Assembly: GCF_006345805.1 (NCBI RefSeq)
Contig: NC_043025.1
Location: 9,052,001-9,116,000 of the forward strand
DNA: 64,000 nucleotides
Direction: 5' to 3'
From: Octopus sinensis
Lineage: Eukaryota
The position numbers and the translations under genes are program-made. The notes under the pieces are model-generated. The model was not told the DNA's origin, ran no database searches, and saw only the letters and a list, made by a program, of their open reading frames with translations. This document shows, one piece after another, positions 848 to 63,023 of this stretch; position 1 is the stretch's first letter; each line of letters begins with the position of its first letter.

Positions 848-907
<60 letters not shown>

Positions 908-910
<3 letters not shown>

Positions 911-3221
911 CAAAATAAGCAACAAGAATGACTCCGGTAATTTGGTACGATCGTTTCGCACTACATCATTTTATTAAATGTTGTAAGTATTACAACAGTA
1001 TTAAAATGTTGAGCACTCATCAGCCATTATTAGAGGTTTTCCATTAATACATAATTTTCATATCAAGTCGCAACATTATAGAGAAGGTAGATGTATAGAG
1101 AAAGATGTGGATTTAAATTTTAAGAACATTTGAGGTAGTCAACTGACTGACTAAGATTCAGTTGTTCCAGACTACTGTAAGGTTCTGAGAGGGAGAATGA
1201 ATGAATGAAAGGCGACAATAAAGATTTTCTATTTATAGAAATGGGGTGAGATGGATGTCAGAGCTCCATATAAAGGAATTTATGTAGAAGACAGGAGTGT
1301 CACAACTAAATGCCAATTACTACTATTTGATGAACAGATCCAGCGTTAGGAGAACTAGGTCAATGACAAATGGTCACAATAACATTCACAGAGAATGCAG
1401 AGACCTTATAAAAGCCATGCACATCATCACAACAATCAGCCTATAGGGTCCGAGTACTTTGACACGTTAGAATAAAGGGAAAATATATATATAAAATTTA
1501 TTCAATTCATAGAAAAGACTATCACTTATTATGAGTAGGCATAGTACTTATTAACTGGGGGAAAATCCTTATTAATCAAATGAATATATTAGGGGTCAAA
1601 ATATATACTAGGAAAGATGGAAGAGGTCACAATAACATTCACAGTTGGTCTATAAGTTCCGAGTACTTTGACACTTTAAAATAAAGGAAAAAACATAACT
1701 CTAAAATTTATTCAATTTGGAGAAAAAGTCTATCACTTATTATGAGTAGGCATAGTACTTATTAACTGGGGGGAAAAGTCATATTAATCAAGTGAACATA
1801 TTAGGGGTCAAAATATATCCTAAGAAAGATGGATAAGGAAAAATCAAAGAAGCAAGAAATTCGTAGGTTTAGTAGTAGGTGGTTTAATAATATGAAGAGA
1901 GGTAATTTAGAAGAGTAAATTATTCAGATTTCATAGATAGTGAGTTGATATTAATGAATTAAAATATAGGATCTGTTGGAAATAATATTTACTACCTGCG
2001 GATAAAGGTAATTAGTTAGGTAATAATATCTTAGGTTAATTATATGTTAAGAAATTGAAGTGAGATAATCAAGATGAACCAAATAGTTTCCCTAGGGACA
2101 TAGTATTAATACTTTTTAGTATTGGAGAACACTATAAATATAAGAATTTAATTCTAAGTTTGCAATGAAGTTCTTTAGTCATATATGAGTGTTAAACTAA
2201 AACCAGTATGGTATATTCGTTCATATTAGGTTAAATATATTTCGTAAAGATATCTTAGACTAATTATATATTAAGAAATGGAAGTGAGATAATCAAGGGG
2301 AACCGAATAGTTTTCTTGGGGACATAGGATTCATATTATTTAGTATTCATACTATTTGGAATTCATACTATTTAGGATTCCAACTATTTAGATTCATACA
2401 GTTTAATTTTAGAAAAAAGAAGAATTCAATTTTAAGTTTGCAGTGAAGTTTTCTTAGTCATCTATGAATGTTAATTTGAAAGCCAGTATGGTATATTCGT
2501 TTTTATTTGGTTAAAAATAAGTAAAATTTGAAAAATTTAGGAATATTCAGAATTTTATTCTTTAAAGTATTTAATCGTACGGGTCGGGTCGTACGATGTA
2601 TACAAGATAATCCTTGTTCCAAACGGTAATTCAACAGATTTGTATTACTCTGATGTTTCAAAATTCATAAGTTTCCATAGAACAAAGTTGACAACCATCC
2701 CTACTATTTCAATAAGGTTGTTCTCTTCTTACTATATCCCATTTTAGATTGAATTCTATATTATTTGTTTATAGTTCCCAAATTTTACTAGACAATGTTG
2801 TGCGACCTGCTTTATGTTTGAGCCTAACGGAGGAAAAATTATTGTTTAGACGTTTTTTTAAAATCTAGCGAACAACCGAAATAAAGAAAACTGTTGTTAG
2901 AAGTTATTATCGTGCATTTATAAATCACGTTTTGGACCGAAAAACGGCCAGATACCGGACATTTTGATCTAATCCTATAATTACAACTGGGGGGGGGGTG
3001 GATAGCTTCCAGTACTAGTATTATTTAAGGACAGTTCACTTTCATTACTGTTATCTGAATTATGGTTAGTATTAGTATTATTTTCACTCTTAGTAATTAC
3101 GTTGTTATGTAAATTAGGGTTACTAGTTATTAATCCATCCTCATTATCATCACCTACCATACTTTTATCTATACTATCTATATTATTGGTATTGTTATTA
3201 TCACTATTTACATCAATGTTG

Positions 3222-3276
<55 letters not shown>

Positions 3277-4615: not shown

Positions 4616-4687
4616 AGATCTCAGTAGGAGTAAGATCAGAATCATCCAAAAAGGATCCTTTCAAAACCTTCCAAGTTTAGAGGAAAT
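4616..4687 (+). CDS. aGPCR LRR exon
   Basis: ttcag|...|gtaagt, 72 nt, phase 2/2; DLSRSKIRIIQKGSFQNLPSLEEI, a typical 24-aa LRR exon. Confidence 0.9.
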
Positions 4688-9630: not shown

Positions 9631-9667
<37 letters not shown>

Positions 9668-12040
9668 CAACATTGATGTAAATAGTGATAATAACAATAC
9701 CAATAATATAGATAGTATAGATAAAAGTATGGTAGGTGATGATAATGAGGATGGATTAATAACTAGTAACCCTAATTTACATAACAACGTAATTACTAAG
9801 AGTGAAAATAATACTAATACTAACCATAATTCAGATAACAGTAATGAAAGTGAACTGTCCTTAAATAATACTAGTACTGGAAGCTATCCCCCCCCCCCCA
9901 GTTGTAATTATAGGATTAGATCAAAATGTCCGGTATCTGGCCGTTTTTCGGTCCAAAACGTGATTTATAAATGCACGATAATAACTTCTAACAACAGTTT
10001 TCTTTATTTCGGTTGTTCGCTAGATTTTAAAAAAACGTCTAAACAATAATTTTTCCTCCGTTAGGCTCAAACATAAAGCAGGTCGCACAACATTGTCTAG
10101 TAAAATTTGGGAACTATAAACAAATAATATAGAATTCAATCTAAAATGGGATATAGTAAGAAGAGAACAACCTTATTGAAATAGTAGGGATGGTTGTCAA
10201 CTTTGTTCTATGGAAACTTATGAAATTTTGAAACATCAGAGTAATACAAATCTGTTGAATTACGTTTGGAACAAGGATTATCTTGTATACATCGTACGAC
10301 CCGACCCGTACGATTAAATACTTTAAAGAATAAAATTCTGAATATTCCTAAATTTTTCAAATTTTAATTATTTTTAACCAAATAAAAACGAATATACCAT
10401 ACTGGCTTTCAAATTAACATTCATAGATGACTAAGAAAACTTCACTGCAAACTTAAAATTGAATTCTTCTTTTTTCTAAAATTAAACTGTATGAATCTAA
10501 ATAGTTGGAATCCTAAATAGTATGAATTCCAAATAGTATGAATTCCAAATAGTATGAATACTAAATAATATGAATCCTATGTCCCCAAGAAAACTATTCG
10601 GTTCCCCTTGATTATCTCACTTCCATTTCTTAATATATAATTAGTCTAAGATATCTTTACGAAATATATTTAACCTAATATGAACGAATATACCATACTG
10701 GTTTTAGTTTAACACTCATATATGACTAAAGAACTTCATTGCAAACTTAGAATTAAATTCTTATATTTATAGTGTTCTCCAATACTAAAAAGTATTAATA
10801 CTATGTCCCTAGGGAAACTATTTGGTTCATCTTGATTATCTCACTTCAATTTCTTAACATATAATTAACCTAAGATATTATTACCTAACTAATTGACCTT
10901 TATCCGCAGGTAGTAAATATTATTTCCAACAGATCCTATATTTTAATTCATTAATATCAACTCACTATCTATGAAATCTGAATAATTTACTCTTCTAAAT
11001 TACCTCTCTTCATATTATTAAACCACCTTCTACTAAACCTACGAATTTCTTGCTTCTTTGATTTTCCTTATCCATCTTTCTTAGTATATATTTTGACCCC
11101 TAATATGTTCACTTGATTAATATGGCTTTTCCCCCAGTTAATAAGTACTATGCCTACTCATAATAAGTGATAGACTTTTTCTCCAAATTGAATAAATTTT
11201 AGAGTTATGTTTTTTCCTTTATTTTAAAGTGTCAAAGTACTCGGAACATATAGACCAACTGTTGTGATGATGTGAATAGGGTTCGTAAGGTCTCTGCATT
11301 CACTGGGAATGTTATTGTGACCTCTTCCATCTTTCCTAGTATATATTTTGACCCCTAATATATTCATTTGATTAATAAGGATTTTCCCCAGTTAATAAGT
11401 ACTATACCTACTCATAATAAGTCTTTTCTATGAATTGAATAAATTTTATATATATATTTTTCCCTTTATTCTAACGTGTCAAAGTACTCGGACCCTATAG
11501 GCTGATTGTTGTGATGATGTGCATGGCTTTTATAAGGTCTCTGCATTCTCTGTGAATGTTATTCTGACCACTTGATATGGACCTAGTTCTCCTAATTCTA
11601 AGACTGTTCATCAAATAGTAGTAATTGGCATTGTGGTGTGACAATCCTGTTCTCCACATAAATTCCTTTATATGGAACTCTAACATCCCTCTCACCCCAT
11701 TTCTATAAATAGAAAATTCTTTATTGTCTTCTTTCATTTGTTCTTTCCTCTCAGAACCTTACAGTAGTCCGGAACAACTGAATTTTAGTCAGTCATTTGA
11801 TGGGCTCCACTACCTCAAATGTTCTTAAAATTTAAATCCACATCTTTGTCTATATATCCACCTTCTCTATAATGTTACCACTTGATATGTAAATTATGTA
11901 TTAATGGAAAACCTCTATTAATGGCTGATGAGTGCTCAGCATTTTAAAACTGTTGTAATACTTACAACATTTAATAAAATGATGTAGTGCGAAACGATCG
12001 TACCAAGTTACCGGAGTTATTCTTGTTGCTTATTTTGATT
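8561..12040 (+). mobile_element. Penelope-like retroelement (Neptune-like), 5'-truncated, copy B
   Basis: GLYRDDA RT motif, VNFLDFTLDL thumb, SYSTLPNM, Cys-rich linker then VIYKC..YFG GIY-YIG nuclease; stops and frameshifts; TA-repeat flanks. Confidence 0.92.
11919..12010 (+). ncRNA. Type I hammerhead ribozyme in PLE copy B terminus
   Basis: CTGATGA 11925-11931; stem II includes catttta/taaaatg and tgttgtaa/ttacaaca; GAAA 11991-11994; palindromic stem III acgatcgt; GUA site; stem I tgg/cca. Confidence 0.78.
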
Positions 12041-12433
12041 ATATATATATGTATACAAGTATACGTACGTATGTATGTATATATATATATATATACACGT
12101 AAACGTACGTATTTATATATATTTTAAAGATTTACAAAAAGGAAAATGTCAGTCATTTTACAACAACTGTCAAGAACTCAGATGTCAGTTAAATACATTT
12201 GAAATCTGATGATTACTACGAACGTATGAAAGCGCTAATTTAACTTTATGAATATTACAAAATATTTTCGAATGTTTAACACATTTCAATATTGGAAAAC
12301 ATTTTTTTTTAAATAGCGTGATAGGAAACGTGAAAACCAGACCGTGTTTTAACTTTATTCCTCAGACTTTCTCGGATTTTGATTATATTCTTTGAGGAAC
12401 TGAAAGGGTAGGTGCTAGATTCCATTTGTACAG

Positions 12434-18752: not shown

Positions 18753-18824
18753 AGAGTTGCAATACAACAAAATACAAAAGTATGAAGATGGCGCTTTCCT
18801 ATTCCTGCCCAGTATAAAGACAAT
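18753..18824 (+). CDS. aGPCR LRR exon
   Basis: ttttcag|...|gtaaga, 72 nt, phase 2/2; ELQYNKIQKYEDGAFLFLPSIKTI. Confidence 0.92.
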
Positions 18825-24522: not shown

Positions 24523-26275
24523 TTTGCACAGTTTCTAACGCTGGAGATGTACTACTTGTCAGCTGTTCACTACCAGTGAACAAAGCAACACCTCTTATTT
24601 TAGGAGCACCTTCTGGAATATTCGAGCGGTTCCATGCAGTGTTGTTTTCTGCAAGTGCTCCACCCTTATTGCAGCCCCTATTTGTTCCATGAACTTCACG
24701 AGATTTTTACTCATTGTTCCCAGGGCTCCGACAATAATTGGTACTATACCACCTTCTTCATCGACCACAACTGCTTTACCTCCCAAGCTAACCTGTCATA
24801 TCTATCGACTTTTCTTTCTTCGTTATCGCATACCTTGTTGTCAGCTGGGCATGTTATATCTATGATCCAGCATAGTTTGTTTTCTTTCTCAATTAAGACT
24901 GTGTCTGGCTTCCTAGTCTCTATCTCATGGTTGAACTGAGTCATAAAATCCCACAAGGTCTTTGCATTATCCTTTTCGATGATGCTTTCGGGCTTGAGGT
25001 CGTACCAATTTTTTCCTCTGTCAAGTCCATACTTGTTGCAAAGTGTCCAATGGACAAGCCTTGCTATATTGTTGTGGCGTCTCATATATTCCTTCTGTGC
25101 TAGTGGCGTACATTGGCTGGTAATATGCCATACGGTTTCACAGATTCTGCACTTATCACTTTCTTCTGTGTTGTCTACTCTGTATTTTATGTAGTTTGTT
25201 CTTAGTGCTTGCACTTGGGCAGTACAGATTAGAACCTCAGTTTCCGGTTTTAAATCACTTTTAGTCATCCACAGCCATCTTTTTTCTCTGTCTGACTTAA
25301 TTTCAACATCCCTATGAAATGGTCCATGCACTATTTTCTTTACCCACCTATTTTCAGTTTCATTCGTTTTCAATTGCTCGTACAGTGCTTTATCTTTGCA
25401 ATCTTTCATCCTACACAAGCCTCACCTTCTTCTAATAATAACGGTTCTGTGGCATTTCGTTATGTTGTTTTCTTCTGCTCTAATGCTGTGTTCGCATCCA
25501 GTCAGTTCTCTTTCCCATCTTTTTCTTGGTACATATAGTTTGTCTGTGACACTTTTTATGTGGAGTATCTCATATCTATTTAGTAACTTCCTTGCCTTTC
25601 TGTCTAAGCTGTATAGTTCCGCGACTGTCCATGCGATTTCCCCTGCTCCATATCTAAAGATTAAAACCGCCCAGGTGTTGATAGCTTCCATCTTATTCCA
25701 TCCATTTAATTTCGACTTAAGGATCAGTCTGCGAAAGTACTCCTCCTTAAATTTTTCTGTCATTTCTTTCTCCATCAATTTATCCATTTCCAAAATCCCC
25801 CAAGTAATTATAGCCCGTCTCTTCTATCTGCTTCATAACCTCCTCCGACGGTATCGATAGTCCGTGCATTCATTTGATTTTGCCTCTCTTCAATACTAAC
25901 ACACCACACTTTCTCAGTCCGAACTCCATTCTGATATCAGCACTGAAGATATACACCGTATCAACGAGGGAACTGACTTGGGTTTCATCTTTACCATAAA
26001 GATTGATATCATCCATGAATAACAAATGGTTGACTTTTTGTTGGCGGCATTTGAATGCATACCCAACTTTTGCTTTCCTCAGTATCAGTGTTAGTGGTAT
26101 GAATCACAGTACAAAGATCAGTGGTGACAGGCAGTCCCCTTGGAAGATACCCCTCCTGATTTCAACTCTCCCTAAACTTCTGTCAGGTCCGTCCTCCAAT
26201 TTGCCATACTTTTTTCGAGCAGTCGCTCAATATTCGAGGCAATACCAAATAGGTTCATACATTCCATTATCCAAT
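24521..26275 (-). mobile_element. R4/Dong-clade non-LTR retrotransposon, 5'-truncated
   Basis: RGIFQGD and LFMDD RT motifs; CRIC..HITSQC knuckle; RHN; RKPD..WIID restriction-like endonuclease. Confidence 0.92.
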
Positions 26276-28790
26276 TTCTTTTAATCACAGGTTTTGTTGG
26301 AACTCTCGGAGTCTTGCATGCATAGCGGGCTTTCTATCTGCAGCCTAGGCTACTATGCTATCCGTTCTTTTCAGCAAATACTTGTCTGATTAATCTGGCT
26401 GTGCCAAGGAGGCAAACCTTTTGTAACAGTTCTGCTAGGCACTCTGTTACAATTTCCTCTATATTCCACTTGATTCCTTCTGATACTGTTCCCAAGGACC
26501 TGGCAACAATTGGCACTATCTTCACCTTCTTCATTTACTATAGCCGGGCTATTTCGTACTTAAGAGGATTGTATTTATCTATTTTATCAGAAGGTACTGC
26601 ACCGTCTATCAGTAAGCAAGTGTTTTCCCCAATCCTTGATTATCATGTCTGGGTGATTAGCTGTTATTTCTTTGCTGGTTTGAACCGGCCTATTCCAGAT
26701 GATTGTGGCCTGATCGTTGTCTTGTAGCTTGTTTGGCATATGCTTATACCACCTATTGTCAGTTTTAATGTAATTTTGGCATATTGTCTAATGGATATAA
26801 CTGCTTACCTTATTGTGTCTGTATATCTATTCAGACTTGGCAAAGACTGGGCAGCACGTAATGATGTGGTCAACTGTTTTATTGTCTTGGTTGCACATTG
26901 TGCATTTGGTGTTGGGGCCTATTTTCCTTATTTTGTTTTTATAATTGTTTGTAGTGAGAGATTGGTCTTGTGCAGCGGGAATCAATCCTTCCGTATCAGC
27001 TTTTAGACCTGAGCTTTTGAGCCATTTTTGACTTTTACTGAGGCTCACTTCTTCTTGGTCAAGGCTTGCAGGATATTGGAAATGGAGTGATTTTTCCCTT
27101 TATTTCTTCTTCAGTATCTTTTGTAATTCTATTTTCATAGGTTTCTTTTTTATCTCTTTGAATATTTCCGCCATACTATCATCTGAAATCAATGTATCAG
27201 TGAACGTTGCTTCTGTTTCATTCTCGTGTTGCTTAACTACATGCAATAGTCTCCCACACTTTGTTTCTAAGAACTTCCTTAGTCCAACAGTTGTTATTTT
27301 ATTGTAATGTTTCTATCTGTATCAGGTCACAATCTCCTTCTAAGTGGGATGAATATATTCTGCTTGCGTCTGCTTTGGTGTGATGACTTCGGTGCACTGT
27401 TAGTAGTCTTCTTAATTTTCTATCTAGGTTTCTCAATTTACTGATCTTCCTGTTTATTATGTTAAAGCTATAATTTGTGACTGGTATGACTAGCGTGTTT
27501 ATCCCTATTATCTTATTTTTTTAGCATTAAGTTCAGTGTTTAATATTAGTTTAACTCTTCTGTAATACTCTCTCCTAAGTTTCTTTCATTTCTCTGTGTT
27601 GTATTTTAGCTGTTTCGTATATTCCCAGATATTTGAATAAGCGATCTTGGTCTAATTCTTTAATTTCTGTGTCTATGTTGAGTGCAGAGTTTTCAGTACT
27701 GATTAATTTGCCTCTCTCGTTGTGAATCTGGCACATTTGTCCAGCCGCATGCTCATTTTTATGTCCTTACTGAAACTATGGACAATTTTGGTAAGGTTTC
27801 TCTGTTCCATAGTACTTTTAGAGAAAAGTTTTGGTCACCCATGTACAGGAGATGTTTTATTTTTTGTCCATAGCATAGTGGGTTTGCTTAACAAGTCTGT
27901 TAGCGGGGGCGGAGAAAGGCAGAACTGCAGGGGTCTGACAGTGAGTCTCCCTGAAAAATCCCTCTTCTCACGGGGTAGGGTACGTTTTCCGATTTGCCAT
28001 TGCATGTTTAAAATATTTTGGTAGTGGTGAGGCTATCTTATTCGTGTGGAGAAATTCCTGTATACATGAGTGTGGAAAGCTGTCGAATGCTTTCTAGTAA
28101 TCAATCCAAGTCATGTTCAAGTTTGTCTTTCTCCTCTTACAGTCCTCTGTAATGGCTCGGTTTACCAGAGGTTGCTCCTTACAGCCATGCATTCCTATCC
28201 CATACCCTTTTTTTTTACTTCTGGTAAAACATTGTAGTTTTCCAGATGCTTTATAAGCCGGTTATGGATTACTGATGCTAGGGTTTTGTTTGATGTTGAT
28301 AGGTATATTATTGGTCTGTAATTTTGTGGAAGTACGGTATCTTTATTTTTCCAGCATTCAGTTTGATGTTGATTCTGGCTCATCAATAAATTGAATGCTG
28401 TTGCTGCGTGGTTATGGGTACTGATGAGGTGTTTCAACTAGAAGTTGGGAATCTTCTTTATTCCTGAACTTTTCCAGTTGCTGGTACTCCTCAGTTGTCC
28501 GTGATCTCTTGACCTGTGATTGTGGGACATATCTGTAGTTCTATTGTGTTCTTCCTACCCGTTTCCCTATTAATCCACTAAGTATTTTTGTTGTATTGTT
28601 TTGGTTTGTTCCATATTGCTTCCCAGTATAACTGAATCACTGATGTTGTTGGCATGATGTCTATTGATATAGTCTTCTTTGTTTAACTCTCTGTAAAAAC
28701 TTTTTGTGTTTATTCTGAATTCTCTATTTTGTTGGAAGAAGCGTTCCCGTTTTTCCTACCATTTTACGCGGCAAGTTTTTGCTGCTATGC
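26276..28790 (-). mobile_element. Older R4/Dong-clade element, different family
   Basis: PQNYRPI; TEGLIPAAQDQSLTTNNY; CTMC...TVDHIITCCP. Confidence 0.85.
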
Positions 28791-29467: not shown

Positions 29468-29625
29468 TAACCTCGAAAACAATAAGAATATGATGTGTGG
29501 ATGTCACCTACCAGCCTTCGTAAATCATATTAAAAAAGTCTATAACAGAAGTGTGACTGTCATTGGCTCGTGTCAGGAGGCTACAGGCGCAACAATCCCT
29601 ATACTGAATTATGCACAATGTAACG
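29468..29625 (+). CDS. aGPCR LRR C-terminal cap exon
   Basis: ttacag|...|gttagg, phase 2/1; NLENNKNMMCGCHLPAFVNHIKKVYNRSVTVIGSCQEATGATIPILNYAQCN (CxCxL, 4 Cys). Confidence 0.88.
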
Positions 29626-32705: not shown

Positions 32706-33853
32706 TACGATCATCGATAAAGGTTTTCGCGATTTTAGTTGTCATTATTCAAGCTATAAACCAGCGATCCGTATGAAATCAACGTTCCACTGTATAACAA
32801 CTGTAGGTGTTTTGATATTTGCCACTGCGTTATCCTTCAAATCACTATTTCACTAGCGAGCGTCTGGACAGTCTCTCCACGGCAATCATGGCGACTCTAC
32901 AGCAGAAAGTGCAGTATGTGTTGTGGTACGCTGAGTGTAAGTCAGTTGTTTTAGTGCAACGTCGTTTTCAGCGTACTTACGAACAAGATTCCCCTACAGA
33001 CAAAACCACTGTTCGCTGGTTTAACCAGGTTTAAGAAACTGGAAATGTAAATATTAAGAAATCTCCAGGCCGGCCTCGCACGCTGGAAAAGAGTGTGGAG
33101 CGTTTGAGACTGTCATGTTTGCCTTGTCTTAAGAAGTCCATCAATCGACGCAGTTTGGAGTTTCGTATGTCTAAAACAACAATTCAAAACGCCTAAGACT
33201 GAATGCTTACAGAATTCTAAAGAGACGTAAAATTAAGGAGACTGATTGGCCTGAAAGCGCTAAATTTGCTGTAACGACGGTGAGAGAAATTGATGACGAT
33301 AACAGTTATCTTAACAGAATTTTTATTTAGTGATGAAGCAACATTCCACATAAATGATTGTGTTAAGCGATATAACAGTCAGATGTGGGGAGCTCAACAA
33401 CCCCATGAAGTCTTTCACGTCTGTGATTCGCCCAAGTTTCATGTATGGTGTGGACTCCTGCAGGATCGTGCTCTTGGCCCTTTCATATTCGTAGAAAACA
33501 CGATTACAGGCGCTAGTTACTTGGACATGCTAGAAATTTATCTGTTCCCTCAAATAGCTCAAATTGCAGACATTGAAAGAGAAAAGAGAATAAGTGTAAT
33601 TTTCCAGCAGGACGGAGCACCGGCAAACTACAGCCATAATGTGCGACAAGTTCTCAACAACAGATTCCTGGCCGCTGGATTGGAAGGAATGGTCCTATTC
33701 TGTGGCCACTTAGAATCACTGATCTAACTCCTATGGACTTTTTAGGGGGGGGGGGGATTTCTTAAGAACATTGTCTACGAAGAAAAATTCCTTTAATACA
33801 GACTTAGTTATTTCATTTTGAAAAGCACGGAAACCTTTTTCGATGACCCCACA
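32706..33853 (+). mobile_element. Tc1/mariner-superfamily transposon (rosa/DD41D-like), degenerate
   Basis: TIR remnants catcgataaaggttt / aaacctttttcgatg; SVVLVQRRF, SPGRPR, FSDEATFH, FQQDGAP, DLTPMDF. Confidence 0.88.
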
Positions 33854-34751: not shown

Positions 34752-34843
34752 ATTACTCGTTATTTCAAAGGAATTTGCAGTGTCAAACATGTTCAAAGAT
34801 GACGTGCAATGAGTCATCTGTAACCAGTTGTCCAGGAGCAGAG
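34752..34843 (+). CDS. aGPCR exon, N-half of Ly6/uPAR domain
   Basis: ctgtag|...|gtaaac, phase 1/0; DYSLFQRNLQCQTCSKMTCNESSVTSCPGAE. Confidence 0.87.
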
Positions 34844-36730
34844 GTAAACTAGGATCTTATTTTCTTCCTTTCCGTTAAAATATATCCGTAACTGTCACTC
34901 GCTAATTGTCGTAGGTGCCTGTGAAGACATGAACACCTTATTGATCTTCTTATCCATGACTCAATGGGACAACAAATATCTGAAGATTGAAGGGAGAAAT
35001 AGATGACAAACACTAAGCTGGGATCCATTTTCACTTGAGTAGACTAAAACAAAGTGCAAGGAAACAACATTGAACCCTGCCCAAGAATCGAACACAAGAA
35101 CTTATGATAAACATAGCTGTACTTAGAGTGGGATGTATGAATGTACGTGGCCAGGAGGCAACTTGAGACCAAGGTTCCTTGCAGAATGATCTTGCAGAAT
35201 GATCAGAAGTCGGACGTGGCCAGTTCGCAAAGATTGCAAAGAGCGGATCAATGAATTAGTTAAGGCAGCAAATGAGAGTTATCATTTGTCTGGTCGCTAT
35301 AGCAAAAGAGGCTGTCTGATAGACGAGGTTGAAAGGTACAACAACAGAGAAATATTATATATCTCTACTAATGAAAAATTGAAAGCGTATTAAATCTTCG
35401 CTCACATCAAGTAGTACACAAACACTTCAGAACATAATTTAGTATTATTTCAAGTGGAAAAGACACAAGCAATACGTTTAAAACGCAGCTAAAACACGAG
35501 TGAAATTGCCAGACGTATGTCTGACCACGTAGTTGTACTCCAGTACATTGGTAATGACACAGAACAATGCTTCATCTTAACTGATATACGGGAATATAGG
35601 AGAATAGAAGTTTGATATAAGTGAATGGCTGCATTCTGTCTCTATTTCATTGTCTGTTCTGCTCTGAGACCTTTCTGTTTTCTTGAAACTGACTTAGCTT
35701 ATTTAAAGCTTCATTCGTTTCCAATCACCGACTCCATTGGCTTTTTTGAAGACGCCAGGCTACCGGTATTATGTGCAGTTTCTATTGGTTCATGACATCG
35801 TAACTCAGTTTCATAGATCTGCATTTTTATTTCTGAAAATTCTCCTAGTTTGAAAGACCCGAGTTTCAGGCTCAAATTAAGGCTACATATATTACTAACT
35901 TCGTGCACTACATTCTCTTTGCTTTTATCGTTGTTAGGTGTATGAAATCATTAATTGTATTTTGCAGTGCATTTTCCCCTTTAAATGTTCTCAATTTCTG
36001 ATATTTTTTGTTTTCAGAATGTATTTTATTAAGTTTAGTGAGGTCCGATGATACATTTGGATCTTAGCTATGATCTCTCCACATTGTATACTAATATATC
36101 CTATTTTCAGTTCGTGACCATAAAATATACTTGCAAAATAAAAGCATATTTCTCTTGTGTCTATTTATGCATTTTCTGTTTTATTTGCAAAGCCTGAGGT
36201 GTTCAATCTGATAAATTTATTTAATTATCAGCTTTGGGTACGGGTGTATGATTTGCTGTTGCTGGTGAGTTTTGTACGCATAATGTTTCGTAAATTTTGT
36301 ATCAAAAAAATCCCCGTGTGCATTCCCGATGCAGAGGAAACTTTGGCGGAATGATACATAATTATTGGGATTATTTGACCTATCTTATGTTTTATGGTGG
36401 GTGGCAGAGTGAAGTGGTTTTGATTTGAACCGTGATTCGATGGCCATATCTACCTGTGATCAGAGAACTTTGAATACTGTAAGTATTCAAAACATTATTT
36501 ATTATAAGTCGTAAATAACCATACACTTTACAGAGAATTACTTATGTTGTCAATTTTCAATTCTTGAAAAGTTGTTTTCGTTTCATTTCTTGCTTTATGC
36601 TATTTTTAAAGCAATGATTAAACCTTGTTGCATGATAGACATTTCCAGAGTTGTTGTTGCTGTAGTTAGCAGTAGTCATAGTAGTAAATATTGTGGTTGT
36701 AGTACATCATTTTTATATCTATTATTACAG

Positions 36731-36914
36731 CCAGTATGCCGATTTGAAATGTCAATGAACGGTGTTACAATGAAGATTGAAAGGTCCTGCAGCACATACA
36801 GAAAATTTGTTGAAGCTATGAGAAACAATACCCTTACATGCAATAAATGGACCAATGGCACTTCTTGTGTTGGTTGTTGCGTCGGAAACTTATGTAACAA
36901 GAATGATTTCCTTG
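36731..36914 (+). CDS. aGPCR exon, C-half of Ly6/uPAR domain
   Basis: ttacag|...|gtaagt, phase 0/1; PVCRFEMSMNGVTMKIERSCSTYRKFVEAMRNNTLTCNKWTNGTSCVGCCVGNLCNKNDFL with terminal CCxxNLCN. Confidence 0.92.
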
Positions 36915-39251: not shown

Positions 39252-39334
39252 ACTGGACCAGTTTCTTCGTATTCCATTTGACTTTTAAAAAGTTCAGCGA
39301 ATATAAAATCTCTGCTGAGAACTTATCAAAAGCT
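39252..39334 (+). CDS. aGPCR exon, SEA-like segment 1
   Basis: ccatag|...|gtgagt, phase 1/0; DWTSFFVFHLTFKKFSEYKISAENLSKA. Confidence 0.8.
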
Positions 39335-40870: not shown

Positions 40871-40918
40871 ATGGAACGTGAGTTAACCACGACGGGACCC
40901 TTACAATTGAATATTTGG
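40871..40918 (+). CDS. aGPCR exon, SEA-like segment 2 (probable indel)
   Basis: ttgcag|...|gtaagc; MERELTTTGP.. enters in phase 0, but the 48-nt length is incompatible with the open frame of the next exon. Confidence 0.65.
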
Positions 40919-42255: not shown

Positions 42256-42412
42256 TTTAGACAGAAACCGGACGATATTTGCTATTTACTCCAAACCATA
42301 TAGCAAGACATCTAAAAAAAACTGTTGCACAATATCTCCCAAGTTTTAAGCACATCCCAAACTTTGCTTAACGTCGGAGTTCAGCAAAGTCACATAGAGT
42401 TGTTTGATGAAA
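42256..42412 (+). CDS. aGPCR exon, SEA-like segment 3 (frameshift in A8 run)
   Basis: tttcag| (alternative AG at 42260) ...|gtaagt; LDRNRTIFAIYSKPYSKTSKK / LLHNISQVLSTSQTLLNVGVQQSHIELFDE; phase-1 exit fits the next exon. Confidence 0.72.
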
Positions 42413-46597: not shown

Positions 46598-46712
46598 TGG
46601 TTTGTGATGAAAGCACAACGTCAAATAACAATCAAACCTTCTCTTGGCCAATGACAAAAATAGGAACTACTGCAGTGATCCCATGTCATGCATATGTAGC
46701 AACAAGATACTG
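46598..46712 (+). CDS. aGPCR HRM exon 1
   Basis: ttttcag|...|gttcgt, phase 1/2; MVCDESTTSNNNQTFSWPMTKIGTTAVIPCHAYVATRYC (C..WPxT..G....PC...ATRxC). Confidence 0.92.
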
Positions 46713-47307: not shown

Positions 47308-47465
47308 TTCTCCCAGAGACTCTGAAATGGCATCAAGTCAATATATGACGACAGCAAAGTGTTCACCGTTTACTGGTATCTGGAAAGAACTAAACATGTC
47401 TCAATGTAACAATACAGATTGGATCACTCGACGACTGAAGGACATCGCAATAAGTATCGATACAG
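47308..47465 (+). CDS. aGPCR HRM exon 2
   Basis: phase 2/1; SPRDSEMASSQYMTTAKCSPFTGIWKELNMSQCNNTDWITRRLKDIAISIDT; donor gtgagc. Confidence 0.9.
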
Positions 47466-49449: not shown

Positions 49450-49669
49450 CAAACTTCGACAATATTTCGAAAGAGATGTTAAATATATCAAACAAATCAA
49501 TATATTTCAAAGAAGTTGATGCTGAATTGGTTGTAGGCATTCATGAGAAAATGGTGTCATTGATACCGAAAGTGTCTGCGAATAATACACTTCGGTCTAT
49601 AAACAATTTGATAAACATACCAGAGGAGGTTTTGGCTGGAGCTGAACAAGAGAAGAGAAGTGCCAACAG
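49450..49669 (+). CDS. aGPCR GAIN subdomain A exon
   Basis: phase 1/2; ANFDNISKEMLNIS...SINNLINIPEEVLAGAEQEKRSANR. Confidence 0.92.
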
Positions 49670-50095: not shown

Positions 50096-50267
50096 ATTGC
50101 TGGATCTTATACAAGAAATCCCAGAAAAGATTCCACTGGAGGAGCAGCAAGTCACAGCTATCTATTCTAATCTTGGTATTGGTGTTGCCAAAGTGAAAAA
50201 TGATACATTCGATGGTCTTTTCTATGGCGTTTCCTATGGAACCAATGGAACAGATGCAAACGCATGG
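50096..50267 (+). CDS. aGPCR GAIN exon
   Basis: phase 2/0; LLDLIQEIPEKIPLEEQQVTAIYSNLGIGVAKVKNDTFDGLFYGVSYGTNGTDANAW. Confidence 0.9.
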
Positions 50268-51307: not shown

Positions 51308-51466
51308 ATAAATCCCTCACCAAATTCCGACCAACAAGAAGCAGATGCGAAGATCATGGCATCTATATCATTACCAAGGAGTTTATTAAAACGTCTGAAA
51401 GACGAAGAAAGGTCATCCGTTTCACGGATAACTTTTTTCTCCATGCGGGACGATAAGCTATATAGG
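51308..51466 (+). CDS. aGPCR GAIN exon
   Basis: phase 0/0; INPSPNSDQQEADAKIMASISLPRSLLKRLKDEERSSVSRITFFSMRDDKLYR (ASIxLP and RIxF motifs). Confidence 0.92.
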
Positions 51467-52384: not shown

Positions 52385-52987
52385 ACGTTAACAGCTTTTG
52401 CTCATCCCTTACACAATCGACCTCTTGGCCCCAACTTTACCATTTGTCACTATCTCTTTACACACTCTTTACCCACGTGTTCCACTGTCTGGATACCCTC
52501 ATGTACCTACCTTCTTGTACCTCGTACATATACCCAGGCACCTCGTTACCTCCGTCTATATCTTGATTTTACCTACTGCCACCCACACACATAAAATGGG
52601 ATAGTCTGCATCTCCTCTGTTTGTCTTCCACCATAATCTAACCTTCAGCATTGTATAATACCACTCACCCCTATTTTCTCAAATATACTCCTTCACTACC
52701 GAGGGGATTTTTTTCCCTTTCCTTGTTTTGGTGGGCTTACTTTTACTGGTAACACTGGAATATCACTTAGAACACATTGTAAAGTGGATGGTATCAGGAA
52801 GGCCATTCAGCTGTAGAAACCGTTGCCAAAGTCAACATTATAGATTGATATAATCCTGGGGTTCGTGGGTTCCTTTCCAAGCATCAAATTCATGCCAGTA
52901 TGGAAAACATGCTAAATAATGATCATGAAGATGATAATTACTCTTACATATATACACAATCATACACATATGTATTTTATGCGTACA

Positions 52988-54210
52988 TACAGAGGTTGGA
53001 CACCTTAAAATCTCAAACAAATGTATTTTAATATGAGGTAGGATCGTCTTTGACTTGAATTCTACGAGGTATGGACTCGTACAAAGTTTGAATTGTTTCC
53101 AAAGGAATTTTTGTCCATTCTTCAGCTAAAACAGTCTCCAGTTCTTGTAGTGATGATGGTGGAGGATATCGACTCCTTACTTGTTTATCTAAAATGCACC
53201 ATACATGTTCAATAATATTGAGATCTGGGGCTGTGGTGGCCAGATAAGATGTTCAGCTTCACTAGAATGTTCCTCGTGCTATTCAGGAAAACTTTAGCTG
53301 TGTGAATTGGTGCATTATCATCCTGAAGGATTGCGTTTCTCCCCGGAAACAGTTCCGCAACCATAGGATGAATTTGATCAGATAAAATGCTTAAATAGCC
53401 TTGACTATTAATACTGCCATGAAGGGAAACTATTGAGCCGGCGGATTTCCAAGACATAGCCCCTCAGATCATCACACAATCCTCCTCCATGTTTAACAGT
53501 TGGAAGAAGGCAGTCTGGTTCAAATGCTTCTCTTGTCTGTTTCTACAGGTATACTCGGCCGTGGTCGAAACTAAGGTAGAGGATGACTCGACCGAGAAAA
53601 TAAATTTTTTTCACTGCTCTAGGGATCAATTCTGTAGGTTTTTATTCCACTCTAACATTTGTCTTTGAAAGTAATGGTTTTCTGATTGCAGCCCTCTCGT
53701 GAAATCCGGCTTTGTGGAGCTCTCGGCGAACAGTTTCTGTCGGAACTGGGTTCTCGAGGTGGTCATTAAGCTCTGCAGTAGTTTGGGGATCTGTACTCTT
53801 GTGATCTTTTCTAACAAACAATTCACGTAAGAGTCCGATCGTCCCTATCTGAAAGTTTTGGTTTTCTTCCGGAGTTTTGTTTCGACGAAGAGGTTTTCTC
53901 ATTACTTTCTAGACAGTACTTCTTAATACACGAAACATTTCGGCTGTTTTCGTTATGCTGGTGCCTACCATACGAGCACCAACAATTTTACCTCTTTGAA
54001 AGTCTGACAGATCTGTCATTTTGATAAATTTTAATTACATTTTTCTGATGATATCTGAAAAGAAACAGCAATTTTAGCAAAACATATTAAGCAACACTAA
54101 TAATAAATCAAAAAACATAAAAATACACAAGCTTTTGACGGTTTTATAGATACTTCAAAATTATGATGCTATGATGTTAGGTGTTTCCATTATTTTGTCC
54201 AACCCCTGTA
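52988..54210 (-). mobile_element. Tc1 (DD34E) transposon, degenerate
   Basis: tacagaggttggaca / tgtccaacccctgta TIRs; TVRRELHKAG, RKPLLS, QDDNAPIH, SPDLNIIE. Confidence 0.92.
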
Positions 54211-55421: not shown

Positions 55422-55550
55422 GTAACACAAAACGCTAGTACCAAGCAAAATGTTAGAATCAACAGCCATGTTCTTGCTGCGAACATTCCTAACATTTCAG
55501 TAAGCGACCTTGAAGAACCGGTTAATATATCGTTCAATATATTAGATCAG
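55422..55550 (+). CDS. aGPCR GAIN exon
   Basis: phase 0/0; VTQNASTKQNVRINSHVLAANIPNISVSDLEEPVNISFNILDQ (INSxV and LxEPVxIxF motifs). Confidence 0.93.
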
Positions 55551-55948: not shown

Positions 55949-56098
55949 AATGCCAGCAACCTACAATGTGTTTACTGGGATGAAAGCTCAGGACTGAATC
56001 CCGGGTGGTCATCAAGAGGTTGTCGAATATCCAAACATGAATCAGGAAAGGAAATAGTTTGCTCCTGTGACCATCTTACAAGTTTTGCCTTATTAATG
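55949..56098 (+). CDS. aGPCR GPS exon with autoproteolysis site and Stachel
   Basis: NASNLQCVYWDESSGLNPGWSSRGCRISKHESGKEIVCSCDHL|TSFALLM, canonical GPS; phase 0/0. Confidence 0.97.
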
Positions 56099-56871: not shown

Positions 56872-56987
56872 AATGTCTACCAGGCTGAAAAAGAGACAGA
56901 CAATGCCTTATCTATTATATCAAAAACAGGCTGTGCAATATCCTTTGTCTTACTCATTCTTACAATAATAATTCATGTTTGTTTCAG
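56872..56987 (+). CDS. aGPCR TM1 exon
   Basis: phase 0/2; NVYQAEKETDNALSIISKTGCAISFVLLILTIIIHVCFR. Confidence 0.95.
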
Positions 56988-57639: not shown

Positions 57640-59420
57640 TTTTTCTAACATAATTGTATTCTACATCATCAAAACGTATGGTTATGATGAAAAACAAATT
57701 TCAGTATAATCGCAATCTACGTCATCTGAAATTAATTTGAAGAAACTTTTTTATCGAAAATTTCCAGTGAAACAAGTTCCCTGTTTAATTCTCACTGACA
57801 GTGCTTTACTTTAGTAAAAAACATGAGGAATATTTCGTCACCTATGCTGGAGTTGTGAACAGAGAGTATGAAAAATTCAAATTAAATGAATTTACTCCGA
57901 ACATATTCAAATGTCTAATTTTTATTCGAGGGCTAACTGCAAGCAAAGATGCAGATTAACGAAATTTGAACAAGACCCAAACTTAACTCTACAGGCAGTG
58001 GCTAAAGAATTCCAGAGTATTATTAATTTAAGACATGATGCAGATAAAACTGAAGAAAAAGATTGTTCACAGATATATGCGTGTCGACCTGAAACGGCTA
58101 AGAAAAAAAACAACGAGTGTCAAATCTCAGTCCATACTCTGAGTACGGAGGTTTACATTTTAATGGTAACTGTCCTTTTAAAGATATAAAATGTTTTAAG
58201 TGTGGAAAAATCGGACGTAAAAACTCACATTGTAGAGCGAAACGAATAAAAAAGGTCGAACGAAAATATTCTGGAAAGAATGTCAACAAAAATTCTAAGA
58301 GAGGCTCAAAAAAGAAAATTTGTGTCTATAAAACTGAATAATGGGAATGTGAAGTTACAGCTGGATACGTGCAGTGATATCGCGATATTTAACACAGATG
58401 CATGGAGAAATATAGGGAAACCTAGATTAAAGGAAACTTCGAAAATTGCGCGAGGGGTTTCAGGAAAGAAATTACATTTTATGGGCGAAATGTTAAGTGA
58501 TGTTACAATTCGTTGAAAAATTTTGAGAGCCAAAGTTTTTATGTTGAATAATAAGACAAATTTATTTGGAACACACTGGATGGAATTATTTAACTTACGA
58601 GACCTCCCCGTAAATATTTTTCGTAAAGATGTGAATGGTTCTTCCGCCTGTACAAATAAGGCGTCAGAGGATTTTAAAAAAAAAATTTTTTTAATGTTTC
58701 CTTGAGTTTGTTTTTCTGATGAATTAGGTCTTTGAATCAAAAATGCGAATTTTCAAGTGAAAGAAAACGCTATAGTGGTATTTAAACCAAAACGAACTGT
58801 AACTTTCGCCGCGTTGAAACAAGTCAACGGCGAATTGGATAGACGTGAAAAGCTTGACATTATTGAAAAATTGATCACACAAAATGGGCGTCCGCAACAG
58901 TTTATGTCAAGAAAAAATAATAAAATCCGAGTATGCGCTGATTTTTTAAGAAGTTCAAATGAATTCTTGAAATCTGGAGTAAGTTGAATGGAGAAAATTT
59001 CTTTCCAAAGCTGGAAGTATCTGAAGCATACTTGCAGGTACAAAGTTGATGAGGAATGTTTAAAATTATGGACAATAGATACCCACAAAGGATTGTATAA
59101 ATTTAATCGACTTCCCTTTGGTATAGAGAGGTAGAACCTGGAATTTTCCAGTACGTTATGGACACAATGTTCGCAGGTTCGGATTTCGCTATAGCTTTCC
59201 TTGACGACATACCCATAAAAAGTGAATCTCGTGGTCAGCATACTGAGCATGTTAAAAAGGTCTTCGAAGAACAAAAAGATTGTGATTTTAAAGTCAACGA
59301 GGAAAAGTGTAAATTTTTGATGCCAAGAATAAAATTTCTAGGGCAGATTATCGATTAAAATGGACACAGACAAGACACTTCATGGGTGGTGAGTGCAATA
59401 AAAAATATGCTTCCACGACA
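57640..59420 (+). mobile_element. Gypsy LTR retrotransposon internal relic
   Basis: CPFKDIKCFKCGKIG knuckle, LQLDTCSD protease, IRVCADF and AFLDDI RT motifs; many stops. Confidence 0.88.
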
Positions 59421-59611: not shown

Positions 59612-59732
59612 AAAACTGTGGGATTTAATGAGTTCAAAGGTTTTAGTAAGCCTGTGCTATTCTTTGGCTGTCGCTTATTTTATCTTCCTTGTCGGGATGC
59701 AATCATACGTACAAACAATGGCTGGTTGTAAG
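59612..59732 (+). CDS. aGPCR ICL1-TM2-ECL1 exon
   Basis: phase 2/0; KLWDLMSSKVLVSLCYSLAVAYFIFLVGMQSYVQTMAGCK. Confidence 0.94.
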
Positions 59733-60206: not shown

Positions 60207-61714
60207 TCTTTGCACAACTCACGCTAGAGGTGTACTACGGTGCCAGCTGTTCCCTACCAGTGAACTAAGGTAACACCTCTTTTTCGAGCACCATCGAGCG
60301 GTTCTAAGCAGTGCCGTTTTCTGCAAGTGTTCCACCCTTATTGCAGCCCCTATTTGTGCTATGTACTTCTCAAGATTTTAACTCAATATACCCAGGGCTC
60401 CAACAATTATTGATACTACTACCACCTTTTTCATCGACCACAACTGCTTAACCTCCCAAGCTAACCTGTTTTATCTCTCGACGACTTTTCTTTCTTCCTT
60501 ATCGCATAACTTGTTTTCAGCTGGACATGCTATATCTATGATCCAGCATCGTTTGCTTTCTTTCTCAATTAACTGGTTTCTTTTTATCTATTTCATGGTC
60601 GCACTGAATCATAAAATCCCACAGGATCTTTGGATTATTATTTTCGATGATACCTTTGGGTTTATGTTCGTACCACTTTTTTGCTTTGTCAAGTCCATAC
60701 TTGTTGCAAAGTGTCCAATGGACAATCCTTGCTATATTGTCATGACGTCCTCTATATTCCTTCTGGGCTAGTGGCGTACATTGACTGGTAATATCCCATA
60801 CGGTTTCACCATTTTGTTCACAAATTCTGCGCTTATCACTTTCTGATGTATTGTCTATTTTGTATTTGATGTAATTCGTTCTCAGTACTTTCTCTTGGGC
60901 AGCACGGATTAGAGCATCCGTTTCCGGTTTTAAATTACTTTTAGTTATCCATAGCATCTTCAACATCCCTATGAAATTGTCCATGCCTTATTTTGTTTGT
61001 CCTCTTATTTTCAGCTTCATTCATTCTCAAGTGCTTGTATAGTGCTTTATCTTTGCTATCTTCAATTCTATACAAACCTGACCTTCCTACATCCTATAAT
61101 AGTGGTTCGGTAGCGTTTTTTACACACCATGCTGTTTTTTCTGTTCTAATGCTGTGTTCGCATCCAGTCAGTCCTCTTCCCCCTCTTTTTCTTGGTACAT
61201 ATAGTCTGTCTGTGACACTTTTTTATGTGGAGTATCCCATATCTGGTAAGCAACTTCTTTGTCTTTCTGTCTAAGCTGTATAGTTCGGCGACTGTGCATG
61301 CGATTTCCCCTGCTCCATATCTAAAGATTAAAACCGCCCAGATGTTGATAGCTTCCATCTTATTCCGTCCATTTAATTTCGACTTAAGGATCAGTCTCAG
61401 TCTGCGCAAGTACTCCTCCTTAAATTTTTCTGTCGTTTCTTTCTCCGTCAATTTATCCATTTCCAATATCCCCCAAGTACTTATAGCCCGTCTCTTCTAT
61501 CTACTTCATAACTTCCCCCGACAGTATCGTAAGCCCGTCCATACATTTGATTTTGCCTCTCTTGAACACTAACACACCACACTTTTTCAGTCCGAACTCC
61601 ATTCTGATATCAGCACAGAAATTATACATCGTATCAACGAGGGAACTGACTTGGGATTCATCTTTACCATAAAATTTGAGGTCATCCATGAATAACGAGT
61701 GGTTGACTTTTTTT
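60207..61714 (-). mobile_element. R4/Dong-clade element, same family as 24521-26275
   Basis: MDDLK RT, LKPETDALIRAAQE, RHDNIAR, WDF; microsatellite on both flanks. Confidence 0.92.
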
Positions 61715-62878: not shown

Positions 62879-63023
62879 GCAGTGGCTGCCCTCTTACATT
62901 ACTTCCTTCTGACATCTCTCGCGTGGATGAGTGTTGAAGCTTTCCATGTCTATCTAAGTGTGGTCGTTGTATTCAAAACATGGGAGACGTCTTTTATGAA
63001 GAAGAGTGCAATTTTGGCCTGGG
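62879..63023 (+). CDS. aGPCR TM3-ICL2-TM4 start exon
   Basis: phase 0/1; AVAALLHYFLLTSLAWMSVEAFHVYLSVVVVFKTWETSFMKKSAILAWG (HYFxL..F/AWMxxE family motif). Confidence 0.96.

Follow-up and report, generated by a model that had tools for sequence, protein, structure and literature searches.

Adhesion GPCRs with an LU domain in their ectodomain have been described before. The starfish sequences LyAr2 and LyAp2 are parts of such receptors and lie nearer LYPD6 (PMC9410279), two LU-bearing adhesion GPCRs are listed in PMC11595613, and LU-bearing GPCRs of molluscs and arthropods, with GPS and LRR in a figure key, appear in PMC13719153, whose available text leaves independent origins versus loss open. 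The octopus receptors resemble these systems, as far as the accessible portions of the three papers describe them, in carrying a LYPD1/LYPD6-like LU within an adhesion-GPCR ectodomain. Specifically, LyAr2 (1113 aa, ADGRG2-like) has its LU at 224-305, the same place as in the echinoderm relatives surveyed here, which in turn differ from molluscs by a Ser/Thr stalk or other modules in the position of the molluscan SEA-like domain. No octopus case stands in the available text of these papers, and the main text of PMC13719153, in the portion accessible, names none from annelids, brachiopods, nemerteans or hemichordates either; its Fig. 2 or supplements may show the LRR-LU architecture. The available portions of PMC11682238 and PMC6900090 hold nothing on LRR-LU adhesion-GPCR architecture, and a search of the openly accessible literature returned no paper on octopus LU receptors. 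An earlier note on this DNA had raised the question whether the architecture might already be widely described. This is true in part: LU-bearing adhesion GPCRs are known from starfish, molluscs and arthropods, but no account of their probable single, ancient origin, or of how large and varied the octopus expansion is, was found in print in the accessible literature.

The octopus expansion itself has a probable counterpart. Group 3 of the octopus adhesion GPCRs in Ritschard et al. 2019 has LRRs and one Death domain, and expression of the expansion is described for axial nerve cord, suckers, skin and gills; the available text counts 21-22 sequences over three species and differs from the present description in making no mention of an LU, three-finger or SEA domain (PMC6408891). 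The octopus LU receptors are likely the same group, because one member, P0041, combines LRR, LU, GPS and 7TM with an intracellular Death domain at its end.

Among vertebrate receptors, GPR126/ADGRG6, together with ADGRG2 and ADGRG4, is closest in its SEA(-like)-HormR-GAIN-7TM order, in being the best fold match and in having the nearest vertebrate 7TM. The accessible part of a study of GPR126 models its ectodomain as closed, with a tip that regulates signalling (PMC6954182). The N-terminal CUB and pentraxin (PTX) domains of GPR126 are, however, absent from the octopus receptor, which carries LRR and LU instead. The LU itself shares with LYPD1 (Lynx2), LYPD6 and LYPD6B twelve cysteines, including an extra pair, and a finger-III helix; these are single-domain, membrane-anchored proteins, whereas the octopus LU forms an inner part of a receptor some 1000 aa long, at roughly 22% identity. 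Three-finger toxins and Lynx1-type modulators are likewise small secreted or GPI-anchored single-domain proteins, in contrast to an internal phase 1-1 receptor module.

The LU exon pair and the gene around it

The window, the whole stretch of DNA analysed here, covers 64,000 nucleotides of Octopus sinensis (G000:C29:9052001-9116000), and the gene lies on its plus strand. LU exon 1 (34752-34843, 92 nt, phase 1 to 0) encodes a linker, finger I and cysteines 1-4, and LU exon 2 (36731-36914, 184 nt, phase 0 to 1) encodes fingers II and III with the CCxxxxCN motif, the finger assignment following a paralog model. Both have AG/GT ends and are open in that phase only, and together they form an in-frame phase 1-1 module of 276 nt, just as the earlier note had read them. 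The pattern Cx8CxxCCx4CN was matched by none of 100 shuffles of the window. The pair follows the LRRCT exon (LRR C-terminal cap; 29468-29625, phase 2 to 1), a label that we take from its CxC..C..C motif, and precedes a three-exon SEA-like module beginning at 39252 in phase 1. The LU thus sits in frame behind LRRCT, as proposed, but not directly before HormR.

Read by phase, the chain from the LRR exon to the last large 7TM exon comprises 20 exons, 18 within the window and 2 beyond, and AG/GT ends are present in all 20 exons examined. A degenerate LRR repeat (4616-4687) and the last LRR exon (18753-18824), each of 72 nt and phase 2-2, lead to LRRCT and the two LU exons. Behind these lie the SEA-like exons (39252-39334, phase 1 to 0; 40871-40918; 42256-42412, ending in phase 1), two HormR exons (46598-46712, with a Pfam HRM match under cut-off at E=0.0037; 47308-47465) and four GAIN exons (49450-49669, subdomain A; 50096-50267; 51308-51466; 55422-55550). 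The GPS exon (55949-56098; Pfam GPS E=1.8e-16) contains the cleavage motif CDHL/TSFALLM, with the HL/T site and a tethered-agonist-like TSFALLM peptide. The 7TM exons carry the first helix (56872-56987), the second (59612-59732) and the third and fourth (62879-63023; Pfam 7tm_2 E=1.4e-7), with three more exons past the window. With GPS and 7tm_2 above the Pfam cut-offs and matches to the HormR-GAIN fold, the gene encodes an adhesion GPCR.

Two further degenerate LRR exons lie upstream, at G000:C29:9038757-9038831 and 9051934-9052005 (window -13243 and -66 to 5). The introns hold broken transposon-like frames at 57890-59355 and 33284-33724 on the plus strand and at 60382-61669, 24539-27300 and 52841-53908 on the minus strand, presumably, from their motifs, retroelement protease/reverse transcriptase, non-LTR and Tc1-like. 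An inverted repeat pair of about 2.4 kb (853-3265 and 9632-12101) flanks the LRR exon at 4616.

The window copy deviates from its family at one conserved position. Its LU keeps the framework ending in CCxxxxCN but has 11 cysteines, not 12: the seventh position is Phe (36806-36808), which leaves the finger-III pair incomplete, unlike in a LYPD1/LYPD6-type LU. Of the 60 LU exon 2 copies that are intact in the genome, 56 retain Cys7. The same Phe occurs in a near-identical tandem twin 175 kb downstream (G000:C29:9214001-9296000; about 97-99.6% identity by substitutions over some 85 kb) and is therefore a shared change. This twin, which RefSeq splits into the two models P0085 and P0086, is a recent duplicate or a second haplotype.

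Compared with the twin, the window lacks single bases at about 40903 and 40916, in the second SEA-like exon, and at about 42320, in the third, where in-frame stops result as assembled; two more single-base losses shift the frame of a 7TM exon beyond the window. Together with the loss of Cys7 in both twins and a search of the 50 kb upstream that found no signal-peptide exon, such damage would speak for a decaying pseudogene rather than a mis-assembled working gene. The distribution of the damage argues otherwise. Over the stretch from 40 to 43 kb, the window is short of 15 single bases and the twin of 3, with 6 substitutions, and both introns and exons are affected. The twin carries a gap-rich patch of its own, over LRRCT and LU exon 1, and all AG/GT ends examined are intact. 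Such a pattern points to unpolished long reads, and the frameshifts of the window copy look like assembly errors. Pseudogene decay is thus rather unlikely.

Predicted fold and receptor context of the LU domain

Each of the 12 cysteine positions of the LU domain is kept in 33-35 of 35 relatives. The best Pfam match of LU exon 2 is the LYPD6 family PF16975, at 12.4 bits and thus below the cut-off of 31.5. PDB matches are weak and nearly all three-finger (5 of 6 rows), among them LYPD1 (E=0.32, or 0.23 with a profile), activin receptor 1 and LYPD6. At its cut-off, Pfam detects no LU in eight octopus proteins, and one echinoderm relative passes PF00087 (24.2 bits vs 21.2). A genome search with PF16975 gave no match anywhere, its controls being likewise unmatched, and a protein atlas yielded one uninformative lead at 0.75.

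The structural comparison used an AlphaFold2 model of the paralog P0019, not of the window copy (35-row alignment, pLDDT 64), which shows the strands of a three-finger fold and a finger-III helix (103-117). Foldseek places LYPD1 (6ZSS) at the top of its list (probability 1.00, TM 0.71 on target, E=0.013), followed by LYPD6B and CD59, with no row at E=0.001. VIA-align ranks three-finger proteins in all of rows 1-31 of 50, with Z falling from 7.9 to 4.5 and none reaching 8; Prod1 and LYPD1 superpose at rmsd 2.5-2.6 over 71-79 residues. The helix of P0019, the presence of Cys7 in most copies and the alignment to 6ZSS indicate that the family has the extra cysteine pair and helix of finger III. 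It is the consistency of the list, rather than any one score, on which the three-finger assignment depends. As such, the fold suggested in the earlier note is supported through a paralog, and the LU is a predicted LYPD1/LYPD6-type three-finger domain with modest scores (E >0.001, Z <8).

Several lines of evidence place LRR, LU and 7TM in one protein. Eight Logan proteins of 1126-1388 aa (P0043, P0055, P0056, P0061, P0097, P0107, P0113, P0117) combine LRR, LU, GPS and 7TM, and because their contigs, at 3.7-6.1 kb, barely exceed the coding sequence, they are intron-free and likely transcripts. In the genome, the exon chain of the P0018 locus runs from a signal peptide to 7TM exons, with which the stretch analysed ends. 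Furthermore, 27 of 47 GPS exons have a same-strand LU exon 2 upstream within 60 kb and none has one downstream, and a 7TM exon follows in 23 of the 27 loci (75 of 80 candidate rows were used, overlapping fragments and one weak row being dropped). The window exon chain, the paralog locus and the Logan proteins thereby bear out the LRR-LU-SEA-like-HormR-GAIN-7TM order in one reading frame. A search of sequencing runs listed no RNA run with a match.

The receptor part resembles GPR126. For a full-length model of the paralog P0018 (pLDDT 71, falling to 36-61 over its LU), the best match is the Gpr126 ectodomain (E=6.6e-24, 478 columns), and its 7TM is 35-41% identical to those of ADGRG2/4/6. The nearest vertebrate matches are ADGRG6, which is also the one vertebrate subfamily represented in the tree described below. 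The region behind the LU in P0018 is predicted to run strand-helix-strand-strand-helix-strand, a ferredoxin-like order, and in an Argonauta relative Pfam SEA is found at E=0.013, below cut-off. Against vertebrate SEA domains, including those of GPR126 and ADGRG2/4, a profile of the region gave no match (best 3.2 bits; shuffles 4.2), and inspection by eye found no GSVVV motif in it. The SEA label is accordingly a tentative one.

Spread across animal phyla and expansion in octopus

Among 1.84 billion representatives, a profile search matched 27, reaching as far as Argonauta, whelk and scallop, and a search with the LRRCT-LU-SEA region of a snail gave 2 of 600 candidates. A broader picture comes from the best 120 of 945 relatives of a whelk GPS-7TM, a set chosen by likeness to this one snail receptor, scored with an iterated LU profile at a threshold of 15 bits (shuffles reached at most 7 bits). 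Among these 120, an LU is present in 56 of 69 non-chordate rows, 42 of them with exactly 12 cysteines in the match, and in none of 51 chordate rows (0/9 amphioxus, 0/42 vertebrate, the latter including 41 ADGRG6 rows); no arthropod member occurs in the set. The positive rows come from gastropods, bivalves, a chiton, Owenia, Ridgeia, Lingula, Lineus, Tubulanus, starfish, sea urchins, a brittle star and three hemichordates, and thus from at least six phyla (molluscs, annelids, a brachiopod, nemerteans, echinoderms and hemichordates). The LU nearly always stands right behind the LRR cap, directly so in echinoderms and Ptychodera as in octopus, though not in the chiton. Scored with a profile built from lophotrochozoan LUs only, 10 of 10 LUs from ambulacrarians exceeded every shuffle that kept the cysteines. 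LU and 7TM identities correlate weakly (Spearman 0.25).

Some relatives in this set carry other domains. A brittle star receptor has SRCR, C-type lectin, chitin-binding and SUEL domains after its LU, in a scallop model plexin-type domains are combined with an LU that is degenerate, and amphioxus relatives have C-type lectin or Sushi domains in the LU slot (P0148, P0128, P0134, P0144).

A tree of 62 rows was built from part of GAIN and the 7TM, after removal of 20 near-duplicates or partial models from 82 rows; 33 vertebrate rows and 15 others of the 120 had been left out earlier, and P0151 and P0086 were labelled as LU-bearing by hand. Lophotrochozoans (98/94), ambulacrarians (88/81) and chordates (86/80) come out apart in it, and the cephalopods form one group (100/100). 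The receptor tree follows animal phylogeny, which favours a single gain before the protostome-deuterostome split. That annelids, a brachiopod, nemerteans and hemichordates also have the module favours one origin with chordate loss. A single bilaterian origin of the LRR-LU receptor, with loss of the LU in chordates and in some paralogs, is thus likely, in a tree whose outermost members are vertebrate ADGRG6.

Two other histories fail. The earlier note had inferred an exon-shuffled receptor; with LU receptors in at least six phyla and a tree that follows phylogeny, recent octopus-specific shuffling is rejected. Also rejected is a single clade of all LU-bearing receptors without later losses (p-AU 1.6e-41), several paralogs having no LU.

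In octopus the LU receptors are expanded. A search with exon 2 found 31 proteins, and all 30 for which a species is named are from Octopus. Of 75 copies of LU exon 2 read in the genome, 60 are open and agree in length (184 nt) and splice sites, 45 are distinct, and at least 23 octopus LU loci run on to a 7TM; the exon counts are lower bounds, as 80 candidates were scored, and may include haplotype duplicates. Three loci of the same genome have 4, 3 and 3 tandem copies of the two-exon module immediately behind LRRCT (C29:1825945-1844669, C29:2084940-2101790 and C6381:27214-41600), and at two of these the repeats were traced up to the SEA-like exon. This is direct evidence that the phase 1-1 module proposed at the outset duplicates as a unit. 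Two further loci (G000:C5:115900863-115960665 and C29:2066540-2115779) run LRR-LU-SEA-HormR-SEA into a terminal exon with no GAIN or 7TM, and their predicted products would be secreted. Additionally, the LRR motif count ranges from 1 to 16 among full-length octopus models, and the RefSeq isoforms of two genes (the P0029 and P0010 clusters, with 13 and 7 models) differ by whole 24-residue LRR units. LRR cassette splicing is therefore possible, although these isoforms are predictions, and similar exons can mislead read mapping.

Possible roles of the LU domain

The anatomy of the LU receptor gene is real and well supported in its exon module, domain order, spread and octopus expansion. With a probability of about 60%, we regard the LU as an ancient and probably inherited component of an adhesion GPCR of invertebrates, a relative of GPR64/112/126, in which, with the LRRs, it likely forms a ligand-binding head controlling the tethered agonist. 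In adhesion GPCRs the HL/T motif underlies self-cleavage and tethered agonism. Because HL/TSFALLM is canonical, both are likely in the octopus receptor. By analogy with GPR126 and other adhesion GPCRs, the receptor would cut itself at HL/T, and binding to or pulling on the LRR-LU head would loosen the outer fragment, allowing TSFALLM to activate the 7TM. An intact HL/T motif would also mean, as in other adhesion GPCRs, that the LU leaves with the shed N-terminal fragment. Both ends of an LU domain exit from its head, and from this fold the LU may kink the chain so that its fingers point sideways and offer a second binding surface. LRR-LU would then occupy the slot that CUB-PTX takes in GPR126, specificity among the octopus copies would likely come mainly from the variable LRR array, and the membrane-less copies would serve as soluble decoys or ligands.

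The pattern of conservation counts against a ligand-binding head. Across 52 relatives the cysteines, one finger-III asparagine (46/52) and a few core residues are kept, and little else; this low cross-phylum conservation fits a passive scaffold as well. The LU could simply be a glycosylated, rigid spacer or cap, holding the LRR array in position and having no partner outside the receptor, a role in keeping with the other modules that amphioxus and vertebrate relatives have in its slot, with a copy number from 1 to 4 and with relatives that have no LU. The domain has, however, kept its place immediately after the LRR cap in both branches of the bilaterians, and in six octopus receptors it is better kept (47% identity without cysteines) than SEA (33%) or LRRCT (38%); a pure spacer is thus unlikely. 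Among octopus copies of LU exon 2, mean pairwise dN/dS is 0.56, or 0.72 without cysteines, pairs that are not independent and that indicate moderate constraint.

The fold also invites more specific partners. The earlier note had speculated that an LU finger binds Cys-loop receptors, and Lynx-style modulation of nicotinic receptors or of the chemotactile receptors of octopus, either in cis or once shed, would suit the closest solved relatives, which include LYPD1, LYPD6B and Lynx1. A free starfish LYPD1-like protein has been tested on alpha4beta2 nicotinic receptors (available text of PMC9410279), and the sites of expression of the octopus expansion in axial nerve cord, suckers and skin (accessible part of PMC6408891) would be apt. 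The fold nonetheless names no target, because the scores of Prod1, GPIHBP1 and ALK2 differ from that of LYPD1 by no more than about 1 Z, with CD59 close behind. Furthermore, no residue is conserved at the finger-II tips over the 52 rows, whose sequence and charge vary freely (mean +0.6), N-glycan sequons occur in 36 of the 52 LUs, the window copy having three such sequons, and the module is far older than octopus. Varying tips and few kept residues argue against one conserved toxin-like target and for a lineage-specific partner or a role in ectodomain shape; the proposed Cys-loop binding is left unsupported and appears very unlikely. Least probable of all is the capture of a growth factor or co-receptor (TGF-beta/BMP as by activin receptors, or LRP6 as by LYPD6) with coupling to G-protein signalling. 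The weak matches in sequence and fold do include LYPD6 and the ectodomains of activin receptors, and the sub-threshold Pfam match is to the LYPD6 family. Yet the NxI/V motif, which we take to be the LRP6-binding one, occurs in finger II in 12 of 52 rows only, and no conserved surface patch suiting one conserved ligand was found.

A ligand-binding LRR-LU head remains the preferred reading. A more far-reaching scenario, speculative and decidedly improbable as a whole, would have an LRR-LU adhesion GPCR of the bilaterian ancestor lose its LU in chordates while octopus built from it a variable system, with dozens of genes, cassette-spliced LRRs, one to four three-finger modules and secreted decoys, for recognition of cells or surfaces in suckers, skin and the nerve cord of the arms; in that scenario the LU would tune Cys-loop or other surface receptors nearby.

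The results bear on the question of independent origins versus loss, as posed in the available text of PMC13719153, and favour one origin with chordate loss. They also supply constructs for testing, namely an intact paralog, natural variants with one to four LUs and membrane-less forms. Taken together, they name a hidden domain, blank in automatic annotation, in an octopus gene expansion tied to the arms and suckers.
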